From: a virus
IMG/VR virus record: IMGVR_UViG_3300026488_000026
Span: 14,937 to 78,936 of that record
Strand: one strand, 5' to 3'
DNA length: 64,000 bases
Of the stretch, positions 2,992 through 62,187 are shown piece after piece. The notes under the pieces are model-generated. The model was given only the letters and a program-made list of their open reading frames with translations. It was not told the origin of the DNA and made no database searches. Positions within the stretch are counted from its first letter, which is position 1. Each line of letters begins with the position of its first letter. The position numbers and the translations under genes were made by a program.

Positions 2992-4347
2992 CTAAACTTT
3001 TAAATCAGGATCGCCTCCTAAAGGGTCTGTACTTCCTACACTACTTGGTTTATTATTTTGGCTTTCAGAATTATCAGTATTATTTTCTGAATTATTTTTA
3101 CTCATAGCAACTAAATCTTGGAAGAATTGAGCTTCGCTACCTGTTAAGAAAGCAGGGACAATATTTTTATCTGCACCATCAAAATCCATTTCTGGTAAAT
3201 CAACTAAATTTCTTGCTTCATTTAATGTGGCAAGTCCTGTTGCAAACAATGTTCTCGCACTATCAGCTTTTACATCAAGAGCCGTATCAAGTTCTGTAAT
3301 TCTTCCAAAATCAAATTCAAAATGATACTTACCATAACCAAATTGTTTTCCTAAAAACAAATTAATTTGGTCTTGTATTCTATATAAATAAGGTCTTACA
3401 GCGGTATTAAATACAACTTTCATTAATTCTTGTGGTTTTCCAGCACTACTTGACTCACCTCCTAAAACAAGTGCATTTAATTTAAAAACTCTTAAAACTC
3501 TTTTTTCACTTATATTTATACTATCTAAAAGCATTGCATCTTTAGGGCTTGCTTGAACTGTCTTATAATCCATTTTGGCTGGTAAAACAGCTATACCTCT
3601 TCTTTCACTACCACCTTTTCCATATAAAGCATTAAATTGTTCTCTTAATTCTTCTATTTGTTGAGGAGTTAGAGCGTATTCTGCTTTTAAAATACCAGCT
3701 AAAATTACACTTCCTTCATAAAATTCTTTTAAACTTTCAATGGCATCTTTTTCTAATGTTAAAGTATCAAGTAAAGGGGCTACACTTGGTAGCCCATAAT
3801 AAGCATTATTTAAAGTTGGATTTACAATCCAAATAAGTTCATTTTCTTTATAAGCAATTTTATCATTATAAATATAACCTTTAATAAATTTAGTCGCATC
3901 GGGCACTACTTTAACATTGTGAGGTTGAGTTAAAAACCAAGTTTCATAACTTCCTTTTACATTTTCAAAAGTTAAAGGAGCTACACCAGAGAGTAATAAA
4001 CCTTGAATTGCAAGTTCAATTATTGTCCCCCAAGACCAAAACGGATTTGGTCTGTATTCCCATTCTCTTAATTTTTTGTCCTTAACAGGTAGTTTTTTAC
4101 CAGATTTATCTAACTGATATAATCTTGGGACGGCTTGTCCTCCAGCTTTTGCTATATAATCAACAGCACTAAAAACAAGCTCACTTGTATGAAAAGAATT
4201 TTCCATAGCACTTGTAGCTAAAATACCATTTCCATCTTTATAATCTTCAAAAATTTTTTTATTTGCTTTTGTAGCTTTGGTATTCATATATATTAATGTT
4301 TCTTTTTTTGTCTGAGGTTGTTTTTTAAAAAGATCAAAAAAACCCAT
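2992..4347 (-). CDS. Portal protein (HK97 family)
   Basis: RPNPFWS, YYGLPS, TLNEARNLVDLP motifs. Confidence 0.93.
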   Translation of the reverse strand: MGFFDLFKKQPQTKKETLIYMNTKATKANKKIFEDYKDGNGILATSAMENSFHTSELVFSAVDYIAKAGGQAVPRLYQLDKSGKKLPVKDKKLREWEYRPNPFWSWGTIIELAIQGLLLSGVAPLTFENVKGSYETWFLTQPHNVKVVPDATKFIKGYIYNDKIAYKENELIWIVNPTLNNAYYGLPSVAPLLDTLTLEKDAIESLKEFYEGSVILAGILKAEYALTPQQIEELREQFNALYGKGGSERRGIAVLPAKMDYKTVQASPKDAMLLDSINISEKRVLRVFKLNALVLGGESSSAGKPQELMKVVFNTAVRPYLYRIQDQINLFLGKQFGYGKYHFEFDFGRITELDTALDVKADSARTLFATGLATLNEARNLVDLPEMDFDGADKNIVPAFLTGSEAQFFQDLVAMSKNNSENNTDNSESQNNKPSSVGSTDPLGGDPDLKV

Positions 4348-4379
4348 CTATTTTCCTTTTTAATTATTATTACATAACA

Positions 4380-4387
4380 TATATCAG
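4380..4387 (-). promoter_or_regulatory. Late promoter motif CTGATATA (portal)
   Basis: 33 nt upstream of ATG. Confidence 0.7.
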
Positions 4388-4449
4388 TTTTAATAAAAAC
4401 ATAAAAAATAAAGGAGAGAAAAATGAAACCTAATTTTAAGGGGAGGACA

Positions 4450-4487
4450 TTCAATTGAGCTTTATTTAAAAATAAAGCTCAATTGAA
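4450..4487. repeat. Perfect 18-bp inverted repeat
   Basis: TTCAATTGAGCTTTATTT-AA-AAATAAAGCTCAATTGAA; no U-tract on either side. Confidence 0.95.
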
Positions 4488-4561
4488 CACCCACATCAGG
4501 TGTTCTAAATTTAACACCCACTTCAGGTGTTATAAATTGAACACCCACATCAGGTGTTCTA
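4481..4561. repeat. Three tandem 27-bp palindromic units
   Basis: AATTGAACACCCACATCAGGTGTTCTA / AATTTAACACCCACTTCAGGTGTTATA / AATTGAACACCCACATCAGGTGTTCTA. Confidence 0.95.
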
Positions 4562-4565
4562 CTAT

Positions 4566-4573
4566 TATATCGG
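4566..4573 (-). promoter_or_regulatory. Late promoter motif CCGATATA heading the repeat element
   Basis: Same motif as at 7 late genes; 4 nt from the first repeat. Confidence 0.65.
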
Positions 4574-4576
4574 AAA

Positions 4577-5626
4577 TTATACAACCCGTGTTGAAATGTA
4601 AATTCCTTTATAAGTTTTTTTACTCAAAGTTGGGTCGGTAGTAAACAAAGGAAAATGTCTAATGCTTACTGTTTCTTTAAAAAACTCACTAAAATAAACT
4701 TTACCATCAGAAGTTTCTTGTCTAAATCTAAATTTTAATTGATTTACTCTCCCCCATTGTGGGTTAGAGCCAGAAAAGTCAAGAGTTATTTTATTGTTAG
4801 TAAATTTATTTAATGGATAATAAGTGCTTCTTCTTGATCTTGACATATTTCCTGTGTTACCACTATTGTTAAAATTAGTAACTTTATCATAACCCCACAT
4901 TTCAAGAATTAAGTTTTCAGGAAAAGTTTGATTAAAGACAAAACCACCAATTGAAATGGTATTGAAAAATTTTTTATTTAATTGCATTGTTTCATTTCCA
5001 TCAAATTGTTTATAAGTTACAGTCCAATCAGTAGGGTCGTCATTATTCATAACAGCATCTTCTAAATACATATATTGTTTTGTATTATCCCACATAGTAA
5101 TCGGTATCATTGCATTTCTTGCTTTTACTCTTGTAGTACCCTCATACCTATCCAATCTTATATTATACATTCCTCCAAATTTAATTGGCTCTTTATAAAC
5201 AATTTTAATTGTTCCAGCTGGATTACCATTAGGAAAACTTAAATGTTGTGTATAACCAGCTGGATTTATATATTGTTTTCCAAATTCCCAATCATCAAAC
5301 AAAGTATCATTAATATATACTTTTACTAAATTTTTATTTGGAAAAATTAATTGTCTTAACCACAATAGTTTTTGAGGCGAAATGTTATCCGTATGAGAAT
5401 ACATAATTATTTGATTTTCTCTAACATTACTACCTCCAAAAGGAACTAAATAGCCTTTTGAAATTGCATCATCTACATTGCTTGTAGCTACCGAATTATT
5501 TGCTACAACATAATAATCGTAACTACCAGAATCTACAATAACCAATTGATTTAATTCATAATTCTGTAATATAATCACATCTGTTGGCTTTAATACAGGT
5601 ATTTTATAATGAGTATAAACTTGCAT
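4577..5626 (-). CDS. Virion structural/fibre-associated protein
   Basis: Late operon; paralogous to C-half of 5637..7505; N-terminal motif shared with 14787..16349. Confidence 0.6.
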   Translation of the reverse strand: MQVYTHYKIPVLKPTDVIILQNYELNQLVIVDSGSYDYYVVANNSVATSNVDDAISKGYLVPFGGSNVRENQIIMYSHTDNISPQKLLWLRQLIFPNKNLVKVYINDTLFDDWEFGKQYINPAGYTQHLSFPNGNPAGTIKIVYKEPIKFGGMYNIRLDRYEGTTRVKARNAMIPITMWDNTKQYMYLEDAVMNNDDPTDWTVTYKQFDGNETMQLNKKFFNTISIGGFVFNQTFPENLILEMWGYDKVTNFNNSGNTGNMSRSRRSTYYPLNKFTNNKITLDFSGSNPQWGRVNQLKFRFRQETSDGKVYFSEFFKETVSIRHFPLFTTDPTLSKKTYKGIYISTRVV

Positions 5627-5636
5627 TTTTCCTCCT

Positions 5637-7505
5637 TTAAATAATTTTCATAAGTTTGTAATCACCTACAAACTTATTTTCACTATCAGATGCATCTATT
5701 GTAAATACAGGAAAAGTCCTGACACTAACTACACTTGAAAGCCAACGACTAAACAAAACATTACCACTTTCATCTGTTTTACCTAATCTAAAATGATAAA
5801 TACCATTTTTATCAAGATTAGAAATTTTATTAATAGTAAATTTACCAATAGGTATTAATCTTCCTTGTGCCTCCATGTTATTTGGGATATGTTTTGTATT
5901 TGGGGATTTACTATCGCTTTTCCATACTTCTATCCAAAAACCATCTGGTAATGTTTCTTCTTTCGGAAATTCTGCTATATAAGCAAAATTAGGACTTGCT
6001 TTTTCTACTATAATTTTAATATCTGGGTTATCAATTCTAATATATTTACAAGAATAGCGTTTATAACCTAATTCTTCCCCAAGTATGCTTACTTCTTTTA
6101 AATAAAATTTATTACCATGGCTATCTGTAATAAATTTAGTTATCATTTTTGGTCTTGAAGTTATTTGTAAAGAGCCTTCTTTTCTATATAATACAAGTTT
6201 ATAATCGCCCAAATTTATAGGCTCTAAATATTCAATTTTAATTTCATCATCGCTATTTAATGTAGTGTTGAATTTTAAATGAGTTGTATAATCAGGATTT
6301 AAACTTTGGACTTGATTGCCAAAATCCCAATCTTCATATTCTACTCCATTAACCCAAACTTTAAATAAATTTTTGTTTTTAAAAACATAGCGTTTTAAAA
6401 ACAACAAGTTTTTACCAGAAATATCTTTTCCTTTTCTATAAATAAAAACACGATTAGTTGTATCACTACTATCGTTAAAGCTAAACAATTCTCCCGTGTT
6501 AATATCAATACCTATTACATAAGCATTTTCTGGTTTTGGTTTTGGGGTCTTTGCATAAGAATAAAAAATAGGATTTTTCATTTTAAAATCAAAAGCATCT
6601 TTTGTTACTGAGAAATAAGGTTTAATTGATGCAAAATCATTTCCTAAAGCAATATCATATTGTGCTTGGTCTCCATAAGCTCCAACTACTAATTGCTTAT
6701 CACTAAGATTACCTCCTTTACCAGCCAAATAAGCTTGATAAAAACTTGTTGGATACATTGTTAAAAAAACTTGGTCTTTATAAGGGTCAGCAGAGGTAGA
6801 AGCCGTAAATCCAGCCCCAGCATAATTATCAGAATTATTTTCATTTGTTACATTTATTTCAACAATACCATAAACATTTCTTTTTATAGCAATGCGTTGG
6901 ACATCATCCGCCGTTTGATTGTTAGGTTGTAATTGTTTTCCAATTCCTGTATCTGATTCAGTTTTTTCCCAATAAGTTTTTTTATCAATAATATCACAGA
7001 TATCTTTTGGCGTGTATCTTCTAACTTCATCAACAGCACAAGGATTTTGTTTTTCAACTTCAGTTATTTTATGAATTTGAACGCCAAGATAAAACCATTT
7101 TGGATTACCATCCTCGTCTTTCCTTGCTTCATACAAACCAGCTTTCTTTCTATTAAATAAAGTCCAAGTTCCTGTTGCTTTTTGAACTAACCATTGCTCC
7201 CCTAAATGGTCGGCTGGGTCAGGTAAATCAGCAAAAGTTTCAACTTCGCCTTCCCAACCATCAAAACTTGAACTACCTCCTCCTAAACTAACTTCAACCC
7301 AACTTATCAAATCATCTTGTAATTGCCAAAATTTTCCATCTTCTTGACAATAAACTACCATTCCTGATTTTCTTCTTAAATCAGGAATGTTATCTCTCTC
7401 TTCAATAGTAGCTACAACACGAAAACCACCTTCTAAATGAGTATCTTCAACTAAAGGATATTCTCCTCCACCTGTATCAAATTTTCCTGTTATTTTAATC
7501 CCCAT
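5637..7505 (-). CDS. Head/tail fibre-like protein
   Basis: GGFRVVATIEERDNIP...RRKSGMVVY and VETFADLP fibre-type modules. Confidence 0.6.
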   Translation of the reverse strand: MGIKITGKFDTGGGEYPLVEDTHLEGGFRVVATIEERDNIPDLRRKSGMVVYCQEDGKFWQLQDDLISWVEVSLGGGSSSFDGWEGEVETFADLPDPADHLGEQWLVQKATGTWTLFNRKKAGLYEARKDEDGNPKWFYLGVQIHKITEVEKQNPCAVDEVRRYTPKDICDIIDKKTYWEKTESDTGIGKQLQPNNQTADDVQRIAIKRNVYGIVEINVTNENNSDNYAGAGFTASTSADPYKDQVFLTMYPTSFYQAYLAGKGGNLSDKQLVVGAYGDQAQYDIALGNDFASIKPYFSVTKDAFDFKMKNPIFYSYAKTPKPKPENAYVIGIDINTGELFSFNDSSDTTNRVFIYRKGKDISGKNLLFLKRYVFKNKNLFKVWVNGVEYEDWDFGNQVQSLNPDYTTHLKFNTTLNSDDEIKIEYLEPINLGDYKLVLYRKEGSLQITSRPKMITKFITDSHGNKFYLKEVSILGEELGYKRYSCKYIRIDNPDIKIIVEKASPNFAYIAEFPKEETLPDGFWIEVWKSDSKSPNTKHIPNNMEAQGRLIPIGKFTINKISNLDKNGIYHFRLGKTDESGNVLFSRWLSSVVSVRTFPVFTIDASDSENKFVGDYKLMKII

Positions 7506-7516
7506 TTAAAAACTCC

Positions 7517-8332
7517 TTAACTGATAGTGCTATCTAACGGACTACCTTGTTGATAAGTAGTTCGTAATGCTTTATATTCAATTGTAACACCATAATCATT
7601 TGTTATATTTATATTATCTAAATAAGTAAAATCCACGGCAAAACCCGATTCATTGTCACGCCAATCATTAATATTTCCCCATTCAGCTGGATAAAAAACA
7701 AAATAATATCTCAATTCACCATGATTATCAAAATTATATTTTCCTGAATACCCACTTTTTAAAGCACTATTCTCAAGTGCTTTAATTTCTTCCGCAGTTA
7801 AAGTTTCTTTTACCGAAGTTCCCCAATAAACTCTTGCTCTCCAATAAACACGAAAATCTCTACTAAATGTTTGTTCTTTTGTATTAACACCACTAATTCT
7901 CCAAGTATAATAACTATTAATTTCGCTTGAAGTTTTATCCTCCCCTATATCTAAATTTTCCTGACCATCATTTGCTAAATTACTACCTAAAATTGTATTA
8001 GCGTTTATATCTTTAATGCTAATAGAGTTTTCTTTTATATTTTCTGAATGACTTGTACTCCATTTAAAAGTTCTAATCCCACCGCTTATTGCTTGTCCTA
8101 CTTCTAATTGCGTTGATTGTCCTTCAATATAAAAACTTGTAAAAGAAGGATATTGATAAGGAAACAAAATCATTTTTAAAACTTCACAAGGTTGCATTCC
8201 ATTAATATCTGTACCAGCTTCTAATCCACCATGTTTTTCTGGTACAACTTCTTCAGTTTGCATAACACAACCACCAGACCCTCCACCAACTCCTATATCA
8301 GGGTAAATCACAGAAAATTTATTATTTGGCAT
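7517..8332 (-). CDS. Virion structural protein (Ig-like)
   Basis: ILFPYQYPSF motif, beta-rich; late promoter upstream. Confidence 0.55.
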   Translation of the reverse strand: MPNNKFSVIYPDIGVGGGSGGCVMQTEEVVPEKHGGLEAGTDINGMQPCEVLKMILFPYQYPSFTSFYIEGQSTQLEVGQAISGGIRTFKWSTSHSENIKENSISIKDINANTILGSNLANDGQENLDIGEDKTSSEINSYYTWRISGVNTKEQTFSRDFRVYWRARVYWGTSVKETLTAEEIKALENSALKSGYSGKYNFDNHGELRYYFVFYPAEWGNINDWRDNESGFAVDFTYLDNINITNDYGVTIEYKALRTTYQQGSPLDSTIS

Positions 8333-8397: not shown

Positions 8398-9756
8398 TTA
8401 TACAACTTGAATTTGTAAATTTTGTAATTTCCACCAACCACTTGTTAAATAACGCAAAGCACCAACAGCTAAGTCAAAATGCCCATCTTTGTTTCTTTCT
8501 ATTGTTTTTCCATTTGAATTTTCTTTCCAATGAGCCAACTTTAATTCTTCTATTAATTGCATACAATTTTCAGATATAAATAATTTTCCTTTTTGAAATG
8601 CTGTGTTAATGTCCCTAATGCTTTCTACTAATTGAATTGGTGCGGGTTGTGTATAGTAGTTATAGCTATATGCCATATCAGCCATTGTCAAACTTGCACT
8701 TGGGTCACAAAACCTTACAACTTGCATATCAGGATTTTCCGCATATCTTTGTTCTATTTCTCTGAATTGTTTAACATGCCATTCAATAGGCATTTGCCCA
8801 GCTTTATATTCGTCCAAAACATAAATATTGCCCGTCATAGGCTCTACCCAAGCTATAACAAAACTTGTATTATCTCTATAACCTATATCAATTCCTACTA
8901 CAAATGTATCTTTTGTTGTCATTTTGTTTTTCAAATCATTAATTCTAAATACATTTTTTTCTAAATCAAAAGCATAAAATACTTGTAAATCCTCGCTAAA
9001 CCCACTTTGAAACTCACATAAATATTCTTGTTCAAAACTTCTTTTATCAAGTTTAGCTTTAATTGCCTCAATCATTTCTCTTGTTATCATAGGATTATCA
9101 TAAATAGTTACCTTTTTACAAAAATAATCATCGCGTTCAGCACATCTTTTCCATAATTTATAAAAATCATTATCAAAAGTTCTTGGCGTTCCTATAAAAA
9201 AAGTTTTAGAATACATAAAACCATTTTCATCAGTTCCATAATCATTTTGTGCTGGAGAAATATAAGTTTCCCAAATTTCAAGAACATTATTAATACTCGC
9301 GGTTTCATCAAAAATAACCAAACTAAATTTATCTCCAAGTGCATTTTCATAATTTTTTTCAGTAACGACACGAAACTTTGCACCATTTTCTAATGTAAAT
9401 GTTAAACCTTTCATATCTTTTGATTTAAAAGGCAATTGTAATTTGTTTACATCTTTTTCAACATTACTAAAAATAGCTTGTGCATTTGCAAAAGTAGGCG
9501 TTACTAATAATATACTTGAATTTGGAACTAAAAGTTCAGCGGAGGCAATTTTTGACATAACTGTTGATTTACCAGCTCTTCTTGACATTAAAAAAACACC
9601 AACATTAAAATCCCCTTTTTGTATTCTATCAATTATTTCTTGTTGATATTTTGTAGGAGTAAATTCAAAAAGTTTCATTACCTTATTATAATCTATCTTC
9701 TTTTTAACTTTTTTATAAAGCTCTATTTCTTGATTTATAGGTTTAAATTCAGACAT
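8398..9756 (-). CDS. terL: Terminase large subunit (T5-like)
   Basis: SRRAGKS Walker A, VIFDE Walker B, GTP motif, FEQEYLCEF, GIDIG nuclease motif. Confidence 0.95.
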   Translation of the reverse strand: MSEFKPINQEIELYKKVKKKIDYNKVMKLFEFTPTKYQQEIIDRIQKGDFNVGVFLMSRRAGKSTVMSKIASAELLVPNSSILLVTPTFANAQAIFSNVEKDVNKLQLPFKSKDMKGLTFTLENGAKFRVVTEKNYENALGDKFSLVIFDETASINNVLEIWETYISPAQNDYGTDENGFMYSKTFFIGTPRTFDNDFYKLWKRCAERDDYFCKKVTIYDNPMITREMIEAIKAKLDKRSFEQEYLCEFQSGFSEDLQVFYAFDLEKNVFRINDLKNKMTTKDTFVVGIDIGYRDNTSFVIAWVEPMTGNIYVLDEYKAGQMPIEWHVKQFREIEQRYAENPDMQVVRFCDPSASLTMADMAYSYNYYTQPAPIQLVESIRDINTAFQKGKLFISENCMQLIEELKLAHWKENSNGKTIERNKDGHFDLAVGALRYLTSGWWKLQNLQIQVV

Positions 9757-12219: not shown

Positions 12220-12945
12220 ATGAAAAAAATTGCTCTTTTATCAGGAGGTAAAGATAGTGTTACAATGGTTGATTTGTTATTAAAAAATAATTATAAAGTA
12301 GATTATATTATTTATAATGACACAAAAATGGAATTTAAAGAAATGTATGAATATATGGAAAGAGTTAAAAAATATTTTAAAGAAAAATACAATAAGGAAA
12401 TTATTACTTTAACTACTGAAAAAGATTATGTTAAAGATTTGTTTCTTAAAAAAAGAAAAAGGGGAGAATATAAAGGTTATTATTATGGTGTTTTATCTAA
12501 AAATCTACCTTTTTGTTGGTGGCGTGATTATGTAAAAAAAGCTCCAATGAATAAATGGTTAAAACAAAATAATATAAAAAATTACTATATGTATATTGGT
12601 TTTTCAAATAATGAAAAAAGAAGAGCTAAAAGGTTTAAAAGAAACAATCCTAACGCTATTTTTCCACTTATTGAATATTTTGATATGAGTGAAAATGATT
12701 GTTTAGAATATACTAAACAAATAAATTTATATAATCCTTTATATGATTATTTTCAAAGAACAGGATGTAGATTGTGTCCTTATCGTAAAAAAGAAGATAT
12801 TTATAAAATTTACAAATATTTTCCTAATGTTTGGGAGGAATATAAAAAAATGGAAGAATTATTTGAAAATAAAGGGAAAGTTATTAGTAGGTATTTTTTC
12901 GATAAACCAATAAAAGAATTAGAAAGAGAATTTAAAATAATTTAG
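12220..12945 (+). CDS. PAPS reductase-family protein
   Basis: SGGKDS PP-loop, DT..EF, RTGCRLCP; extended -10 TGnTATAAT at 12185-12193. Confidence 0.85.
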   Translation: MKKIALLSGGKDSVTMVDLLLKNNYKVDYIIYNDTKMEFKEMYEYMERVKKYFKEKYNKEIITLTTEKDYVKDLFLKKRKRGEYKGYYYGVLSKNLPFCWWRDYVKKAPMNKWLKQNNIKNYYMYIGFSNNEKRRAKRFKRNNPNAIFPLIEYFDMSENDCLEYTKQINLYNPLYDYFQRTGCRLCPYRKKEDIYKIYKYFPNVWEEYKKMEELFENKGKVISRYFFDKPIKELEREFKII

Positions 12946-14786: not shown

Positions 14787-16349
14787 TTAATTAATTTGAT
14801 ATCCCCAAAGTTCATCTTTAAAAACATTACCTTTTCCATCGGTCCAATAAACAACAAAACTTGAATTATCGTTTTCTTTTATCCCACCTAAAACAAAAGC
14901 TGGTTTATCTAATGTTTCTAATAATTTAACAGCATTAGTATCGTTTGCTACAAAATTAATAAATAGCATATTTCTTCTTGTATCATTGCTATTTCCATCA
15001 TTATTAATTAATTTTAGCCCATTAGGTAAATTATAAAATTTAAGGCTATCTTCTTTACAATCAATTTCTATTCTTGTTGCATTGTCTATGTTTGTATATT
15101 TAGAACTTGTAGCCCTAATATGTAGATGTTTTTTATTATCTGAATCATTAAACCAATCAATTCTGGCTTGTGCTGGATAAGCACTGCCTAAACCAAAATT
15201 ATAACCTACCCAGCTACCAGAGCTTGTTGTATTCTTGTAAGCTTGGTATGTTCCTTTATCTCCAGCTACAATATCATAAGCATTAATATTTGAACTTGTA
15301 ACATCAACTGCTAAACCTAATGTTCCCGTAGTCCAATTATATTTTAAACTTTTTCCTAAAGTTGAACTTGCGTTGTAATTATCATTTTGACTTACAACAA
15401 CATCATAATTTACATAATCATTAGTTTTAACAACTAACGCTTTCCATTCATTTGAATTACCTTTCCTTCTAACAATAATTTCTTCAGCTAAATTATCATA
15501 AATTAATTGTCCTCCTTTTGGGTATTCATTAATATCATTTTTCCAATCTTCTATTCTTTGATGAACAACATCTTGAGAGTTTGATGGTAAATAAATCCAA
15601 CCATCATTCCAAAAAACAAAACCTGAATATTTAATTTCTTTATTTGCTACTAATGAAGTTTTACCTTTAAACCAACCAAAATGCCCAGCTGAGTTATAAA
15701 TAACAAGATTTTTATTTTTAAAATCAATCCAATAATATCCATCTTCTGGCGTTCCTTGTCCTGTTGGCGGGTAGCCTGTAACATAATTAATACGATTTTC
15801 AATAGAACGATTAAAATCCCAACCAAAATCCCCACGAGCTTTTATAGCATTATTACGACCACAATATAAATTATAATCTTTTGTATCTCCATAAATAGGA
15901 ATACCAGCTCCTATAACGCCATATTGATTAACAGCAAATTGAACTTGTGATGTATAAGCTTGTATAACTTTTTCGCTATGTGTAAAAATTCTTAAAGGCG
16001 TAACATTTTTACTATCAACAGTTGTATCAATATTTAATGCTGAGTTTGTTCCTTGTGGGTTGTGTTGTAAATATGGACTTGTTATTGCTTTATCTCCATC
16101 AGTTTTATATAAAAATTTATTTTTTTCTCCTTCAATTGTAGTTCCATATTTTATTTTTAAAAGTTGTCCGTTTGAAATTGCGTCATTAACTGTAACTCCA
16201 ACAACTTCATTTGGATCAACTACTAAAACATAATGTTCAAATACATCAGAACTAATAGCAACTTTTAAAATATCTCCTCTTTTAAATTTATCAAGTTTTG
16301 AAAATTTAGTATCTACTATTGCTATTTCTGTATGAGTTGGGATTGCCAT
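14787..16349 (-). CDS. Tail fibre protein
   Basis: Gly/Asn/Trp-rich; heads the fibre operon. Confidence 0.65.
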   Translation of the reverse strand: MAIPTHTEIAIVDTKFSKLDKFKRGDILKVAISSDVFEHYVLVVDPNEVVGVTVNDAISNGQLLKIKYGTTIEGEKNKFLYKTDGDKAITSPYLQHNPQGTNSALNIDTTVDSKNVTPLRIFTHSEKVIQAYTSQVQFAVNQYGVIGAGIPIYGDTKDYNLYCGRNNAIKARGDFGWDFNRSIENRINYVTGYPPTGQGTPEDGYYWIDFKNKNLVIYNSAGHFGWFKGKTSLVANKEIKYSGFVFWNDGWIYLPSNSQDVVHQRIEDWKNDINEYPKGGQLIYDNLAEEIIVRRKGNSNEWKALVVKTNDYVNYDVVVSQNDNYNASSTLGKSLKYNWTTGTLGLAVDVTSSNINAYDIVAGDKGTYQAYKNTTSSGSWVGYNFGLGSAYPAQARIDWFNDSDNKKHLHIRATSSKYTNIDNATRIEIDCKEDSLKFYNLPNGLKLINNDGNSNDTRRNMLFINFVANDTNAVKLLETLDKPAFVLGGIKENDNSSFVVYWTDGKGNVFKDELWGYQIN

Positions 16350-25959: not shown

Positions 25960-26062
25960 TTTAAATAGGAGGCACAAAAGGCAAAAAGCTCGAAATTTCG
26001 GAGGCACAAATGAAATGCTATAAATAAGGAGACACAATTTCTTTTTTGGCTTTTTGCCTTTT
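25960..26062 (-). ncRNA. Candidate multi-target anti-RBS sRNA
   Basis: sigma70 promoter with no ORF; 14-bp stem 25976-25989/26049-26062; three anti-SD modules matching RBSs at 25632, 24284 and 24714. Confidence 0.65.
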
Positions 26063-26064
26063 AA

Positions 26065-26094
26065 ATTATAAAAAATTTTATAATTACTTGTCAA
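26065..26094 (-). promoter_or_regulatory. sigma70 promoter of the candidate sRNA
   Basis: TTGACA-18-TATAAT. Confidence 0.8.
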
Positions 26095-29515: not shown

Positions 29516-29764
29516 TTATTCTCCTTCTGTTGTTGATACTAAAGGTTTAACTTTATTTATTATAATCCACCAAAATTTTTTCCATAAAGGTAATTTAATG
29601 ATATACCAATTTTTGTCATCCATTGAATACTCTCTAATTCTATTTTTATTTGTAGTCCATTGAACTCCCATTAATTTAAAAATAATAGGTTTTGTTTTAC
29701 CTCTTGGGTTTCTAAAAGCATAACCTTTTTCTAAAAGGTATTTTTGTGCTTTTCTTATTGTCAT
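29516..29764 (-). CDS. Hypothetical basic protein, operon leader
   Basis: Conserved leader ATAAAAAATAAAGGAGAGAAAAATG. Confidence 0.7.
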   Translation of the reverse strand: MTIRKAQKYLLEKGYAFRNPRGKTKPIIFKLMGVQWTTNKNRIREYSMDDKNWYIIKLPLWKKFWWIIINKVKPLVSTTEGE

Positions 29765-29795
29765 TTTTCTCTCCTTTATTTTTTATTGCGTAAAA

Positions 29796-29824
29796 ATTAT
29801 AAAAAATTTTTTATAAAAAGTCAA
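29796..29824 (-). promoter_or_regulatory. sigma70 promoter with palindromic spacer
   Basis: TTGACT-17-TATAAT. Confidence 0.85.
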
Positions 29825-30723: not shown

Positions 30724-31201
30724 TGTTAAATCTTTCTATTATTTCTGGCGTATTTTCTTTTCTTAATTGAATATCAAATATTTCTAAATTAATTGTTTGA
30801 GTATCTAAAAAGACCTTATAATATCTAAATTTTTTTTGAATATCTTTATCTTTTAGAAGAAAATGTACTTTTTTATAAGTGTCTTTTAATATAGAATTAT
30901 CATTATACATAGTATTAAACCAAAAATAATAAAGAACATACTTAATAATATGTTGTCCTACTTTTTTAAGTTTTGAATGTTTATTACTTGTAGCTTCATA
31001 AATAATAATTGAATTTCCTTTTGCCAAATGTAACAACATATCATCAGGAACATTTAATAAAAATTTTTTATATGCTTTTTGTTCTAATAAAGACGATTGC
31101 AATCTACAAAAAGAAATATTAGAAACTGAATTTATAAGAATGTGATTATGTTCAAAAACTTTCAGCCCAGCTGTTAAATTAACATATTCTTTTATTTTCA
31201 T
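30698..31201 (-). CDS. Hypothetical protein
   Basis: YVNLTAGL...RLQSS; coupled to the GGDEF gene. Confidence 0.7.
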   Translation of the reverse strand: MKIKEYVNLTAGLKVFEHNHILINSVSNISFCRLQSSLLEQKAYKKFLLNVPDDMLLHLAKGNSIIIYEATSNKHSKLKKVGQHIIKYVLYYFWFNTMYNDNSILKDTYKKVHFLLKDKDIQKKFRYYKVFLDTQTINLEIFDIQLRKENTPEIIERFNNEFKIINN

Positions 31202-31683
31202 TTTCTACCTTTCTTTTTAATTATAATTTTATCTAATTGTTTTATACTCTCACGAAAAGATAAATTTTTTCCAAAATAACCCTCAGCAAAAGTGATGTTT
31301 TTAATAGAACTTAAATCTAACTTATCATAAGGTTGATAAATAATTACAAACTCATCTCCTCCTATTCTAAAAATTCTACCACTAACATTTTGTTTTTTCA
31401 TTAATTTTTTAATTTGTTCAACAACATTAATTATAAATTTATCTCCAGCTTCATAGCCTTGTTCTCTATTTAATAAATGTAGATTGTCTAAATCAATTAA
31501 AATTAAATTATAAAACCATTTGTTTTTACTTTCGATTTGTTCTTTATATTCTGTTTTTAAAAGTTCATCAAGATAATGTCTATTATAAACTTGTGTTAAA
31601 TGGTCTTTTTTAAGATTTTCAATTTTCTTTTTTAAATCAGAGATTATTTCCTCTAAAAGTTCTATTCTTTCTTCGCAACTCAT
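31198..31683 (-). CDS. GGDEF diguanylate cyclase-like protein
   Basis: DHLTQVYNR, IDLDN, GYEAGD, RIGGDEF; N-terminal coiled coil. Confidence 0.88.
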   Translation of the reverse strand: MSCEERIELLEEIISDLKKKIENLKKDHLTQVYNRHYLDELLKTEYKEQIESKNKWFYNLILIDLDNLHLLNREQGYEAGDKFIINVVEQIKKLMKKQNVSGRIFRIGGDEFVIIYQPYDKLDLSSIKNITFAEGYFGKNLSFRESIKQLDKIIIKKKGRK

Positions 31684-33883: not shown

Positions 33884-34150
33884 TTATGCTTTTAAATCTA
33901 ATTTTAAATCAAAGTCTATTAATTCTAAATCTCTTTCTAATAATCTTCCTTTTAACCTTTTATTTTCTATTTTTTCTTGATTATAAAGTTTTTTATAATA
34001 GTTAATTTTATTTTCAAGTTCATTAATATATTCTTGTAATAAGCGTAAATGATAAAATTTAATAGATAACTTATCATTATCAGTAATTTCAAGTTTCCAT
34101 CTTTTAATTGCTTCAATAGTAGGTTGAACGATTTGTTTTTTATTTTTCAT
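33884..34150 (-). CDS. Coiled-coil hypothetical protein
   Basis: Conserved AAAGGAGAGAAAAATG leader. Confidence 0.7.
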   Translation of the reverse strand: MKNKKQIVQPTIEAIKRWKLEITDNDKLSIKFYHLRLLQEYINELENKINYYKKLYNQEKIENKRLKGRLLERDLELIDFDLKLDLKA

Positions 34151-34418
34151 TTTTCTCTCCTTTATTTTTTAATATATTAAAGGCTATCATAAACGCTTTT
34201 TTAAAAGCGTTATCATCTATGTTTAAGAAAAACTTTTCATCTACCATAAAACTATCTTTTCCGTTATTATAAACAACTTCTAATTGTCCATCACTACTCT
34301 TTAACCATTCTTTAAAAGCGTCCCAAAATAGAACGCCTGAAATAGCGTCAAGTGCTGTTTCTTTATCATATGCTTTTTCTATTACAAAAACCTTTTTATT
34401 TTTCCGTTTATTTTTCAT
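34140..34418 (-). CDS. Hypothetical protein, operon leader
   Basis: Conserved AAAGGAGAGAAAAATG leader. Confidence 0.7.
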   Translation of the reverse strand: MKNKRKNKKVFVIEKAYDKETALDAISGVLFWDAFKEWLKSSDGQLEVVYNNGKDSFMVDEKFFLNIDDNAFKKAFMIAFNILKNKGEKNEK

Positions 34419-34448
34419 TTTTCTCTCCTTTATTTTTATTGCATTAAA

Positions 34449-34477
34449 ATTATAAAAAATTTTTTATAGTTTGTCAA
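34449..34477 (-). promoter_or_regulatory. sigma70 promoter with palindromic spacer
   Basis: TTGACA-17-TATAAT. Confidence 0.88.
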
Positions 34478-38264: not shown

Positions 38265-38711
38265 TTAATCTCCTTTTATATTAATTTCAATGATTATTTT
38301 ATTATTTTCTTTATTTATATTTATTAAGTAATTTTTATTTTCTTCATACTTTTTATAAGGTCTTAATAAACAATCCATAGAAATAAATAAATTATTCAAT
38401 TCATAAACACAACCATCATCTGCAGTAAATAAAATACTACTAAAATTAGCATCTTGTGGAGGTCTATTATCAAAACTAATACTTTTTATTTTAAGAGGAC
38501 TTTTTCTTTTATCAAAATAAAATTTACATCCAATAAGTTTTTTTAATTCTATTGTTCCATCAAATTCAATTATTAAATAATCCTCTGGTAGAGAATTACT
38601 CATAAATAGCCATCTATCAAAATTATAAATTTTTAAATCACTTAAATCAATTAACAATCTTATTTTTTCTCGTTCTCTATAAATAAAATGGTCTTTTGTT
38701 AATATTTTCAT
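38265..38711 (-). CDS. Hypothetical protein, operon leader
   Basis: AAAGGAG RBS. Confidence 0.7.
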   Translation of the reverse strand: MKILTKDHFIYREREKIRLLIDLSDLKIYNFDRWLFMSNSLPEDYLIIEFDGTIELKKLIGCKFYFDKRKSPLKIKSISFDNRPPQDANFSSILFTADDGCVYELNNLFISMDCLLRPYKKYEENKNYLININKENNKIIIEINIKGD

Positions 38712-38743
38712 TTTTTTCTCCTTTACTTTAATTTAGCAACAAT

Positions 38744-38772
38744 ATTATAAAAAATTTTTTATAAAAAAGCAA
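38744..38772 (-). promoter_or_regulatory. sigma70 promoter with palindromic spacer
   Basis: TTGCTT-17-TATAAT. Confidence 0.75.
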
Positions 38773-40136: not shown

Positions 40137-40415
40137 TTAAACCATTTCAAAAAATTTACTTAATTTATCATATAAAAAAGCTCCTATTCTATAATTACCA
40201 TTTCCTAAATTTTCAATATACTTTTCAAATTTTTTTAAAACATACAAAATTCTTTGCTTACTATCTCCTGTTTCACTTGCAATTTCTTTTAAAGAAAATT
40301 TCCCTTTTTCCCTTTGAATTTTAGCTCCTAATAATAAATACAATAAACCTCTAACAGAAATAGAATTTAATTCATTTTTTGAAATTTCATTTAATCTTTT
40401 TAATAACAATTTCAT
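40137..40415 (-). CDS. Winged-HTH protein
   Basis: FSLKEIASETGDSKQRI; AAGGAGAGAAAAATG leader. Confidence 0.65.
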   Translation of the reverse strand: MKLLLKRLNEISKNELNSISVRGLLYLLLGAKIQREKGKFSLKEIASETGDSKQRILYVLKKFEKYIENLGNGNYRIGAFLYDKLSKFFEMV

Positions 40416-40454
40416 TTTTCTCTCCTTATAAAATTTTTTGAATTATAATATATT

Positions 40455-46274: not shown

Positions 46275-47618
46275 TTAATTAAATTTTAATGGTAGTCTAA
46301 ATTGATATCCTTTTGGTAATAAACTATCATCTCTTACAAATTTTACATTTTTACCTCCTATACCATAGAGTCTATATTTTTCAACTTCTGTTTCAAAATA
46401 ATGATTTTTTACAAAGTCAAAGTGTTCTACAAATTCATTATCAATATTACTTATTGCAACTTCATAAAAATTCTTATAACACATAGGGCATAATTGTTTT
46501 TTAAATTTAGAAAAATAATTACCACAACAAACACATTTTCTAAACATTCCTACTTGCAAATCCACTATTTGTCTATAAATTTCTTCTTTATTAAAATAAT
46601 AAATATTTTCTTGAACATATAAATTTTCCAAACCAAATGTTACAATTTCATCAGTTATTTTATACTTAATTTTTTTACCATTTTCTAATATAAAACCAAT
46701 AGGTAACAAATTTTCATCAAACCAATAATCTAAAACTTTAATAAAACTTTTTCTTGTTTTTAATTTTAAAATTTTAATGCCTTGTTTATCTATTATTAAA
46801 TGTTTTTTAATTAAATTTTTACCTAAACTTTTTAAATCATAGAAAGTATTAATTTCTTTTATATTAGGATATTTAATTTTTATGTTATTGTATTTTTTAA
46901 AACGAAAATTTTTAATTTTTTTGCCTTCGTTAATCATAAATAAAGGAACTAAAATGTCTTTTTCATAAATAAAATAAAAGGACATGTTATTTTTAAACTT
47001 AAAAATTTCTTTTAAAAAACTAATTATTTTTTTACTTTTTAAATCAGAATCAATTAAATTTCCTTTTTTAACAAAACTAAAAATTTTATATTCACTTACA
47101 CCTTTAGGTAAAATATAAAAATCTAAAGGATAATTTAATTTATCGCCAACGCCTCTAAGCAATTTAATTTTATAATCTTTTAAATCCAAATTTTCAATTT
47201 TTAATAAAGCATATAACTCTTCTTTTGTATATAACTTTTTTAAAACACTTAAAATAAAATCTTCACCTACATTTAAAAATTTACCACTTAAAAACAATTT
47301 AATTATCCAAACTATCTTTTTATTAATACTTTTAGTATATTCTTTTAAAGCCGTTAAATCTCCTTGCTCTATATAAAAAAGAATTAAACCTAATGCTGAA
47401 ATTAAATCTCCACCTTCTATCAAATCACCTTCTCTTATAAAACTTAAAAAATTTTTATTTTTTGGAGTTAAAGAATAATATGCCGAAATTAATAATTCAA
47501 ATTCTTTTCTAAACTTATTATAAGCAACTAAAAAAGCATTTTGTCTATTATAGTAGCCTTTTTCAAAATAAAAATCATTTACTAAATTAAAAAGAATTGT
47601 AATATTTTTTGATTTCAT
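46275..47618 (-). CDS. Hypothetical protein; probable inactive DNA ligase paralogue with C-terminal Zn finger
   Basis: By-eye colinearity with 26426..27778; lacks KxDG; CVCC...CPMC. Confidence 0.45.
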   Translation of the reverse strand: MKSKNITILFNLVNDFYFEKGYYNRQNAFLVAYNKFRKEFELLISAYYSLTPKNKNFLSFIREGDLIEGGDLISALGLILFYIEQGDLTALKEYTKSINKKIVWIIKLFLSGKFLNVGEDFILSVLKKLYTKEELYALLKIENLDLKDYKIKLLRGVGDKLNYPLDFYILPKGVSEYKIFSFVKKGNLIDSDLKSKKIISFLKEIFKFKNNMSFYFIYEKDILVPLFMINEGKKIKNFRFKKYNNIKIKYPNIKEINTFYDLKSLGKNLIKKHLIIDKQGIKILKLKTRKSFIKVLDYWFDENLLPIGFILENGKKIKYKITDEIVTFGLENLYVQENIYYFNKEEIYRQIVDLQVGMFRKCVCCGNYFSKFKKQLCPMCYKNFYEVAISNIDNEFVEHFDFVKNHYFETEVEKYRLYGIGGKNVKFVRDDSLLPKGYQFRLPLKFN

Positions 47619-48189
47619 CACTATCTATCCTTTCTACTTTACCATATTGAATAAAATCTCTAATAAAAATAATACTTTTTACTATAATAAATTTAAGACT
47701 ACTCAAAGATATGTTATTTACTTTAGCCGTTTTTATTAAACCATAACCTTTTATAAAATAATCATGCAAAAGTTTTAATTCAAAATCAGTAAAATAATTT
47801 TTTAATAATTCTCTTATATTTTCTTGTAATAAATATCTCTCAACATCTTCCATATAATTTTCATTTATATGAAATTCCTCATAATTTTCAGGGGGAGCAG
47901 TAAGCCAACTTTCTTTATCTTTTAAACTTTTTTTAATTGCACCATATTTATTTAAACTATTTTTAGCAACCCAATCTAACATTCTTCCATAAATTTTTTT
48001 ATAAGCAAATCCCATAAAATAATCGTTTTTATCACTATCATATTTTTCTTTTGCTAAAAGATAACCTAAAACCCCTTCTTGAATTAAATCCTCTAAATCA
48101 ATTCCTGCAAAACTTCTCTCGTATATTTTATAAGCTAAACCTTCAATGTGTTTATAATCTTTTTCTGGTATATTATACTTATTTGACAT
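47587..48189 (-). CDS. RNA polymerase sigma factor, FliA/sigma28-like
   Basis: DLEDLIQEGVLGYLLAKEKYD...F..FAYKKIYGRMLD (region 2); divergent region 4. Confidence 0.88.
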   Translation of the reverse strand: MSNKYNIPEKDYKHIEGLAYKIYERSFAGIDLEDLIQEGVLGYLLAKEKYDSDKNDYFMGFAYKKIYGRMLDWVAKNSLNKYGAIKKSLKDKESWLTAPPENYEEFHINENYMEDVERYLLQENIRELLKNYFTDFELKLLHDYFIKGYGLIKTAKVNNISLSSLKFIIVKSIIFIRDFIQYGKVERIDSDEIKKYYNSF

Positions 48190-56921: not shown

Positions 56922-57269
56922 TTAACCTTCTAAATCATTAAAAGTTTCAAAAAAAGTAGCAATATAAATCAAATAATTCGTCCTATCAACACTTTTTAAT
57001 ACTTCTATTAAATCAATAAAAGAATTAATTTCAACTTCCTCCATTAATTCTAAAAAATGAACAAAACCATTTACCAAACATTCATTTTTATCAAGCATAC
57101 TTGAAAATAAAATAAATAAAGCAATTGTATCTTGCTCTAAAATAGCTTCTTTAAACGAAATTTCTTTGTTTTTATATTTTTCTACTAAAGCATCAAATTC
57201 TTCTTTACTAATACCATAAACTTCCCATAAATTTTCTGCATTAGGATTTACTATTTTTAAATCTCTCAT
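56922..57269 (-). CDS. Hypothetical protein, operon leader
   Basis: Conserved AAAGGAGAGAAAAATG leader. Confidence 0.7.
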   Translation of the reverse strand: MRDLKIVNPNAENLWEVYGISKEEFDALVEKYKNKEISFKEAILEQDTIALFILFSSMLDKNECLVNGFVHFLELMEEVEINSFIDLIEVLKSVDRTNYLIYIATFFETFNDLEG

Positions 57270-57301
57270 TTTTCTCTCCTTTATTTTTTTATTGCATTAA
57301 A

Positions 57302-57330
57302 ATTATAAAAAATTTTTTATAAAAAGTCAA
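57302..57330 (-). promoter_or_regulatory. sigma70 promoter with palindromic spacer
   Basis: TTGACT-17-TATAAT. Confidence 0.85.
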
Positions 57331-61443: not shown

Positions 61444-62187
61444 TTAAAAACCTTCTGAATATAAATTTTTATTTGGTATATAAGGAAAACCACCAAATCT
61501 TTTCGCATTATTATAAGCAATACAATCGTTTAATGTTTTCGTACAACCAGCATATACATTTATATGACTTATATCGGTAAAAAATATAGGTTTTAATAAA
61601 GTAATTGTTCCACTACTTTTATTATAATCCATAATAAATTGTTTTTCGTCCTTAGATGTTACAATATACCCAGAAATTAAATTAAAAGATAAATCTTTTA
61701 ACAAATCACTTACAATAGTATCGGCTCGTGGCATTTCATATGTACCTGATGCAAGAGTTACCTTATAATTTGCTAAATTTAAACCGCAATTTTCATCACA
61801 AAAATTAAAACTACAATAACGACTATAACTTCTTTTTGGTATAGTAACATCTTTTAAAATATATTTTGAGCCAATTGTTACTTTAACTATTCTTTTAACA
61901 TAATTAAAATCACAAGTTAAAACACTACCCTCAAAAAAAACAAAATTTTGCGGATATTTTTTTATTTTTATTGTAGCTAATTTAACATTAGGGTTTGTAA
62001 CAAAATAAGCAAAAGGTTGAGCATCTATCGGAAAAGTAACAATAGCCCCATTTGTATCAACAGTCAAATTAATTTCATTTCTTTCAATCGGAATTGCTCT
62101 ATAAGTAATTCCGTTAAAAAATAAATCTTCCGCCCCACTACAATAAAAATAAGTTTTACCCATATAATAAATTTCATATAGTTCCAT
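61444..62187 (-). CDS. Tail tip protein (DUF2163/BR0599-like, Fe-S)
   Basis: C.......CG, GC.KT...C, FGGFPYIP. Confidence 0.88.
   Translation of the reverse strand: MELYEIYYMGKTYFYCSGAEDLFFNGITYRAIPIERNEINLTVDTNGAIVTFPIDAQPFAYFVTNPNVKLATIKIKKYPQNFVFFEGSVLTCDFNYVKRIVKVTIGSKYILKDVTIPKRSYSRYCSFNFCDENCGLNLANYKVTLASGTYEMPRADTIVSDLLKDLSFNLISGYIVTSKDEKQFIMDYNKSSGTITLLKPIFFTDISHINVYAGCTKTLNDCIAYNNAKRFGGFPYIPNKNLYSEGF

Follow-up and report, generated by a model that had tools for sequence, protein, structure and literature searches.

The spacer upstream of the portal gene in this phage contains a 28-nt inverted copy of the leader shared by its early replication genes, and the match is far beyond chance. 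The copy, here called the anti-leader (positions 4401-4428, minus strand), is the reverse complement of the early 5'UTR, the SD sequence, the AUG and the second codon, and it forms an island conserved above the neutral rate between fast-evolving flanks. The most economical functional reading is the one proposed in an earlier note on this DNA, in a refined form, namely that the late leader RNA would carry a segment antisense to the early translation starts. We put the probability of this reading at somewhat more than one in three (about 0.37).

The studied genome (G0) is a 78,936-bp IMG/VR virus record with terminal repeats and a G+C content of 25%. The window, to which all coordinates refer unless otherwise stated, is the 64,000-nt stretch from base 14937 to base 78936 of that record. 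The source is an uncultivated phage, probably from a hydrothermal-vent metagenome, and the phage is apparently lytic. Nearly all genes are located on the minus strand; a PAPS-reductase-like gene on the plus strand (12220-12945) lies amid the late genes. For comparison we used two relatives from IMG/VR, G1 (83.9 kb) and G2 (80.6 kb), the portal proteins of which are 92% and 88% identical to that of G0. The fourfold (neutral) sites of the portal gene are 66%, 55% and 53% identical among the three genomes, indicating a large divergence.

An inverted copy of the early leader in the late region

The anti-leader lies in a spacer of 229 bp, flanked by an unassigned gene (4577-5626, minus strand) and by the portal gene (2992-4359 including the SD sequence, minus strand; PF04860), which starts with an ATG at 4347 behind a weak SD sequence, AAAGGAA, at 4353-4359. 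The 28-mer on the plus strand at 4401-4428 reads as given in the earlier note and is, as claimed there, antisense to the shared early leader. With up to three mismatches allowed, it recurs on the minus strand only, at 29759-29786, 34145-34172, 34413-34440 and 57264-57291, and none of 100 shuffled controls yielded a match. Local alignment reproduced the match lengths reported previously for the genes starting at 34150 (27 nt), 29764 (26 nt), 34418 (25 nt), 57269 (24 nt) and 40415 (18 nt), while the match at 38711 comprised 19 nt with one mismatch instead of 20 nt. The operon contexts described for these genes were likewise recovered with Pfam (ligase and C5-MTase, primase and GGDEF, PolA, helicase, FEN and NrdAB). 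In an all-against-all search for inverted copies of translation-start regions, the anti-leader was the longest orphan in the G0 genome, and only one other orphan, 16 nt in size and located at 26000-26015, carried both a CAT and an anti-SD sequence.

Most of the early leaders belong to a repeated cassette of about 65 nt, in which the promoter TTGACT-17-TATAAT is followed after about 7 nt by the leader, so that the leaders at 29764, 34418, 57269 and 38711 are its transcribed tail. The cassette at 29759-29824 (start codon 29764) precedes an operon with MTase and ligase, the one at 34413-34477 (start codon 34418) an operon with GGDEF and primase, and the one at 57264-57330 (start codon 57269) an operon with FEN, NrdA and NrdB, all on the minus strand. 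A cassette with a one-mismatch leader variant (38709-38772, minus strand, start codon 38711) is located upstream of PolA and a fifth stands before 25632, giving at least five cassettes in all. The cassettes at 29824 and 57330 are nearly identical, and two cassettes share at least 29 nt exactly. The leader with the 27-nt match (34145-34172, minus strand, start codon 34150) is operon-internal and has no promoter, and the variant with the 18-nt match (40413-40428, minus strand, start codon 40415) lies upstream of the helicase gene. The homology of the anti-leader to these units spans approximately the transcript start to ATGAAA and does not include the promoter part. A minimal GGDEF protein is encoded by a gene at 31198-31683 (minus strand) in an early operon.

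A complete early-type unit is present on the plus strand of G2 (genome L009, 35712-35905), where TTGACA-17-TATAAT and the leader are followed by a 41-codon ORF for a very basic protein. This cassette, which is missing from the G0 window, is located right after the portal stop codon and is directed toward the 3' end of that gene, and thus would yield an RNA antisense to the portal mRNA. Additional plus-strand cassettes with small ORFs are found among the late genes of G2.

Conservation and genomic context of the spacer

The whole module, consisting of the promoter P1, the hairpins, the stem and the anti-leader described here, is located at the same place in G1 and G2. Pairwise identities of the anti-leader among the three genomes were 24/28, 26/28 and 24/28 (86-93%). 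The adjoining 21-nt linker (4429-4449, minus strand) contains indels and is 43-46% identical between G0 and the relatives and 65% between G1 and G2, and on the other side the 13 nt that separate the anti-leader from the portal promoter P2 are deleted in G2. A second anti-SD sequence, GGGGAGGACA, had been noted within the linker on the plus strand (4440-4449); it is present in G0 but missing from G1 and G2, and since it is not conserved we rejected it as a part of the device. Loss of the motif in relatives that keep the leader had been named in advance as evidence against the proposal, but both leader-keeping relatives, G1 and G2, retain the inverted copy.

Outside these genomes the module was not recovered. 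A blastn search of window 3800-5800 against phage records gave no matches, and a tblastn search with the portal protein gave relatives at no more than 26% identity. The module is absent from relatives with 49-65% portal identity, in most of which TerL immediately precedes the portal gene and in some of which a true divergent gene occupies this place, and no inverted start region was found near the portal gene of the distant relatives G3, G5 and G6. The occurrence in three fairly close genomes only is a point against the antisense reading.

Three genes (7517-8332, 5637-7505 and 4577-5626) separate TerL (8398-9756) from the portal gene in G0. None has a Pfam match, only 5637-7505 has a PHROG match (function unknown), and 5637-7505 and 4577-5626 resemble paralogs by eye. 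Because relatives at 49-60% portal identity have TerL and portal side by side, the three genes at 4577-8332 represent a clade-specific insertion, one end of which is the spacer with the anti-leader. In more distant relatives, the region upstream of the portal gene carries other tandem repeats. A unit of about 29 nt stands there three times in a row in L095 and one of about 44 nt twice in L030, and L028 has a large palindrome at this place. Repeated structured elements at this place may be a general trait of the phage group.

Late promoters and a phage sigma factor

There are 21 copies of the motif YYGATATA on the minus strand and 7 on the plus strand, compared with 5-8 in controls. Twelve of the 21 minus-strand sites are located 27-44 nt before the SD-led starts of structural and packaging genes, including TerL, portal and protease-capsid, and no conserved -35 element was seen at these promoters. 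Distant relatives have (A)CGATATA equally far from the start of the portal gene. In sequence the motif is similar to -10 boxes of the sigma28 type, such as CGATTT in C. jejuni (PMC3656092), and it is likely read by the phage sigma factor encoded at 47587-48189 on the minus strand (31.9 bits for Pfam Sigma70_r2, where the cut-off is 24). A CGATA-type -10 box at a set distance before the late genes, together with an encoded Sigma70_r2 protein, is what is expected of a system of the sigma28/FliA type.

Two such promoters flank the anti-leader. P2, CTGATATA (4387-4380, minus strand), is the ordinary late promoter of the portal gene, located 32 nt before its ATG and downstream of the anti-leader, with 13 nt between them. 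P1, CCGATATA (4573-4566, minus strand), lies directly past the stop codon of gene 4577-5626, about 140 nt upstream of the anti-leader and 218 nt from the portal ATG. It is the only intergenic YYGATATA site that lacks an SD-led start 27-44 nt behind it, and it is conserved in G1 and G2. A late RNA starting near 4560 had been suggested from the sequence previously, which agrees well with a late-type promoter near 4570 that has the anti-leader downstream on the late-sense strand.

The form CCGATATA is found at 662, 2991 and 4573, that is, before protease-capsid, before other structural genes and at the orphan P1, while CTGATATA is found at 4387, 8369, 9798 and 16388, before portal, TerL and other genes. 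The two forms may represent sub-classes of strength or timing. Another copy of CCGATATA (61570-61577, minus strand) falls within gene 61444-62187. Both G1 and G2 retain it, which may reflect an internal promoter or merely the conservation of coding sequence.

RNA structure between P1 and the anti-leader

Downstream of P1 the elements are arranged in the order three hairpins, an 18-bp stem, the 21-nt linker, the anti-leader, 13 nt and P2. The hairpins belong to three tandem 27-nt units (4481-4561, minus strand), each with the 7-bp hairpin GAACACC-N7-GGTGTTC. In the nine copies from the three genomes all 56 cells (100%) were paired, which was equaled in none of 500 shuffles, and two pairs showed compensatory changes (GC/UA/AU and AU/GC). 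A scan of IMG/VR with the hairpin unit identified tandem arrays in G1 and G2 only, and the other 86 hits were single chance matches.

The stem (4450-4487, minus strand) consists of 18 perfect base pairs with a 2-nt loop, and no other perfect hairpin in the 79-kb genome is as long. It is fully paired in each of the three genomes, with three compensatory pairs, and contains four G-C pairs. Its G.U pairs are valid in the late-sense RNA only, being A.C mismatches on the plus strand, which argues that the selected structure is an RNA of late sense. Neither a terminator scan nor inspection of the relatives identified a U-tract after the stem on either strand in G0 and G1, and there was no terminator-like site in 4100-4800. 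We therefore rejected the stem as an intrinsic terminator, since the U-tract is lacking and the genome holds no further such hairpins that would form a class. A transcript ending at the stem had been named as another observation that would speak against the antisense proposal, and the sequence gives no sign of this. The stem could nevertheless stop or process the P1 RNA. A permissive Rfam cmscan of 4250-4700 produced only sub-threshold matches to hairpins of the miRNA-like kind. The predicted accessibility of the anti-leader inside the P1 RNA was uneven, with values of 0.45, 0.75 and 0.24 in the three genomes, which speaks against the antisense reading.

Pairing strength and specificity

The predicted duplexes of the anti-leader with the early leaders of its own genome reached -34 kcal/mol in G0, -38.5 kcal/mol in G1 and -31 kcal/mol in G2, with values ranging from -29 kcal/mol, against a background over start regions with a median near -15 kcal/mol and a standard deviation of 5-6. 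The uninterrupted match of G2 to its own leaders is only 15-16 nt, or 26 nt with two mismatches, another point against the antisense reading. The complementarity is extended, covers both the SD sequence and the AUG of the targets and lies well above background, as would be expected of a trans-acting antisense RNA. A terminator or defined 3' end of its own, also expected of such an RNA, was not found, and the transcript would continue into the portal mRNA.

Start regions behind YYGATATA gave best duplexes of only -17 to -19 kcal/mol. The start region of the portal gene itself scored -10.0, -14.5 and -17.1 kcal/mol, corresponding to ranks 83/102 in G0 and 61/112 and 38/96 in the relatives. The weak pairing with late start regions and with the portal indicates that the anti-leader distinguishes genes with the early leader from late ones and is not adapted to the portal gene.

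To follow the leaders across genomes, the anti-leader of each genome was scored against all start regions of G0, G1 and G2 and the five top scores were averaged. The means were 24.2, 19.7 and 16.9 for the G0 anti-leader, 21.2, 22.3 and 17.4 for that of G1, and 17.5, 16.7 and 19.5 for that of G2. The own-genome value on the diagonal was the highest in every row and column of this 3x3 matrix, a pattern that comes from three genomes and that gene conversion predicts as well.

A candidate late antisense leader RNA

According to the antisense reading, P1 would depend on the phage sigma factor and, having no gene of its own, would start a non-coding late leader RNA. This RNA would fold first into the three small hairpins and then into the 18-bp hairpin, pass through the 28-nt anti-leader without a recognizable terminator and run on into the portal mRNA. 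Late in infection the anti-leader would pair with early mRNAs over their ribosome-binding sites and block initiation, and the duplexed mRNAs might perhaps become substrates for RNase III. The targets would be the genes that head the operons for replication and nucleotide metabolism, whereas late genes, having no such leader, would escape. What can be read from the sequence is the complementarity, the promoter class and orphan status of P1, the late-strand RNA structure, the conservation and the leader tracking; the firing of P1, the arrival of its RNA at the anti-leader, the pairing in vivo and the repression are four steps that we infer.

The second orphan inverted start region counts in favor of this reading of 4401-4428. 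It is located at 25960-26094 (minus strand), about 370 nt upstream of gene 25632 and of the promoter cassette of that gene, and consists of a sigma70-type promoter (26094-26065) that fires into an RNA without an ORF. The RNA contains a 16-nt complement to the SD sequence and AUG of gene 25632. This orphan is conserved in G1, where a C-to-T change in the target still permits a G.U pair. A wider reading, which we consider doubtful, is that RNA would partly run the temporal program, each class of genes having a private "barcode" at its ribosome sites to which the next class carries an exact antisense. The two modules would then be 4401-4428, transcribed from a late promoter and aimed at the replication operons, and 26000-26036, transcribed from a sigma70 promoter and aimed at neighboring genes.

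Alternative explanations

The strongest competitor of the antisense reading, unlikely but of real weight, is that the anti-leader may be the relic of a mobile early promoter-leader cassette that has no function of its own and has been kept similar to the leader by gene conversion. A unit resembling a moron, with a promoter, a leader, a small ORF and a stem-loop, would have been inserted in reverse between the tail-fibre-like gene and the portal gene, and would since have lost its promoter and most of its ORF. The early cassettes are near-identical repeats, so spread and gene conversion are active and could by themselves account for the conservation and for the tracking of the own leader; the near-identity of the 65-nt cassettes at 29824 and 57330 suggests that one or the other was recent. 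The complete plus-strand cassette beside the portal gene of G2, and the others amid its late genes, indicate that such units do land in the late region. The three genes inserted between TerL and portal in this clade likewise mark the spacer as a recombination-prone joint, and the short open frame and strong stem-loop behind the inverted copy are what a decayed unit would leave. On the other hand, a relic should decay like its flanks, yet the anti-leader is 86-93% conserved next to sequences that are 43-65% identical or deleted. Conversion would have had to act in inverted orientation on a mere 28 nt of homology in three lineages, and although tracts from promoter-bearing donors should restore the promoter, no promoter part has been kept. 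The adjoining 18-bp stem, moreover, is selected on the opposite, late-sense RNA strand. A cassette relic with gene conversion explains the same sequence facts, and the late shut-off of the replication operons put forward in the earlier note is still something that we infer.

Other roles for the segment appear far less probable. It is improbable that the CUCCUUU core of P1 transcripts acts in cis by folding onto the portal SD sequence and throttling portal translation while P2 transcripts stay free. The minimum-free-energy folds of G0 and G2 do pair the segment with the portal SD region, and the inverted-repeat arms at 4347-4362 and 4402-4417 are 75% complementary, but the prediction for G1 lacks this pairing, the portal start region ranks no better than average or low among the partners, and 28 nt including the CAU are retained where a core of 6-7 nt would suffice. 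We see an equally small chance that a phage protein binds this sequence as double-stranded DNA, both just downstream of the early promoters, for repression, and, in the reverse orientation, just upstream of P2. A position 14-41 bp upstream of the P2 hexamer is a usual one for an activator or repressor, and DNA sites can function in either orientation, but the sequence is absent from all other YYGATATA promoters, lacks dyad symmetry and has no candidate protein, and a conserved span from the transcript start to the start codon plus 3 nt fits an RNA better.

Least probable of all is a real translation start on the plus strand. The earlier note had offered as its alternative a relic minigene for MKPNFKGRTFN, and this 11-codon mini-ORF is indeed present behind the inverted leader (4423-4458, plus strand), with an SD sequence, a 7-8-nt spacing, an ATG and a short frame that is open in all three genomes and in two of them stops in the first arm of the 18-bp stem. 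The minigene itself found no support, since the peptides MKPNFKGRTFN, MNRLIEL and MKKKKERKLN are unrelated and of unequal length (11, 7 and 10 residues). The remark that no sigma70-type promoter precedes the mini-ORF held, and a YYGATATA promoter was not found on the plus strand at the inverted leader either. A small-protein or leader-peptide gene was rejected on these grounds. A translated mini-ORF would require an unrecognized plus-strand transcript in a place where no plus-strand gene lies downstream and where the G.U pairs of the adjacent stem become A.C mismatches.

Comparison with known systems

The c4 RNA of the immI region of phages P1 and P7 is processed from a longer transcript and controls ant and icd. 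This antisense RNA and its binding site are cited in PMC8201110. The candidate RNA resembles c4 in that a phage RNA would control phage genes by pairing at or near a ribosome-binding site. It differs in that c4 functions in lysogenic immunity, where its target is a single operon located downstream of it, whereas the candidate lies in the leader of late structural genes in an apparently lytic phage and would hit four to six unlinked early operons; c4 was not among the matches of the permissive Rfam scan. In C. jejuni, the small RNA CJnc230/FlmE arises when RNase III and further RNases process a longer mRNA, and it acts as a translational repressor of its targets (PMC11187230). Like CJnc230/FlmE and the FliA-dependent CJnc170/FlmR of the flagellar cascade, the RNA of one temporal class would here act post-transcriptionally on the mRNAs of another. 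The C. jejuni RNAs, however, belong to the host, pair through short seeds and have targets without a common leader, while in the phage there is a full 24-27-nt copy of a multi-operon leader and the sigma factor is phage-encoded.

The T4 endoribonuclease RegB recognizes GGAG and an A-rich tail at early ribosome sites and inactivates early messages, sparing the late ones (PMC3014915). The logic is the same as in T4 RegB and RegA, in that a motif shared by early ribosome sites is exploited for selective shut-off, but the motif is read in T4 by a protein, either an endoribonuclease with S1 or a repressor, and would be read here by an RNA. The systems of phages P1 and P7 and of C. jejuni are thus the nearest in mechanism, and RegB is the nearest in logic. 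A structural parallel is provided by the PeSL cassettes of T4-type phages, repeats that mediate recombination and gene shuffling (PMC2839356, PMC4122927). As in PeSLs, the early copies are near-identical repeats, each built on a strong early promoter of the sigma70 type, which are scattered in front of small genes and tied to differences in gene content between relatives. A PeSL, however, combines a promoter with a terminator stem-loop, whereas the conserved unit here is a promoter with a 5'UTR and ribosome-binding site, and the orphan copy, unlike the early copies with their TTGACT-17-TATAAT, has no sigma70-like early promoter and is inverted within a late leader.

Should the antisense reading prove wrong, three features would still be new for this uncharacterized phage group, namely the orphan late promoter P1, the trio of co-varying hairpins and the 18-bp stem as the longest hairpin of the genome. 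The early-gene shut-off known from lytic phages is protein-based and involves nucleases, translational repressors or changes to the RNA polymerase, and we know of no established precedent for an RNA-based late shut-off of replication genes in such phages, which weighs against the antisense reading. If the proposed reading is true, an antisense segment of the one-to-many kind within the leader of late structural genes would constitute a new variant, and the phage would have a simple timing device, made of RNA only, in which one leader common to several unlinked early operons allows all of them to be silenced. It would also provide a reason why the early genes keep identical leaders.
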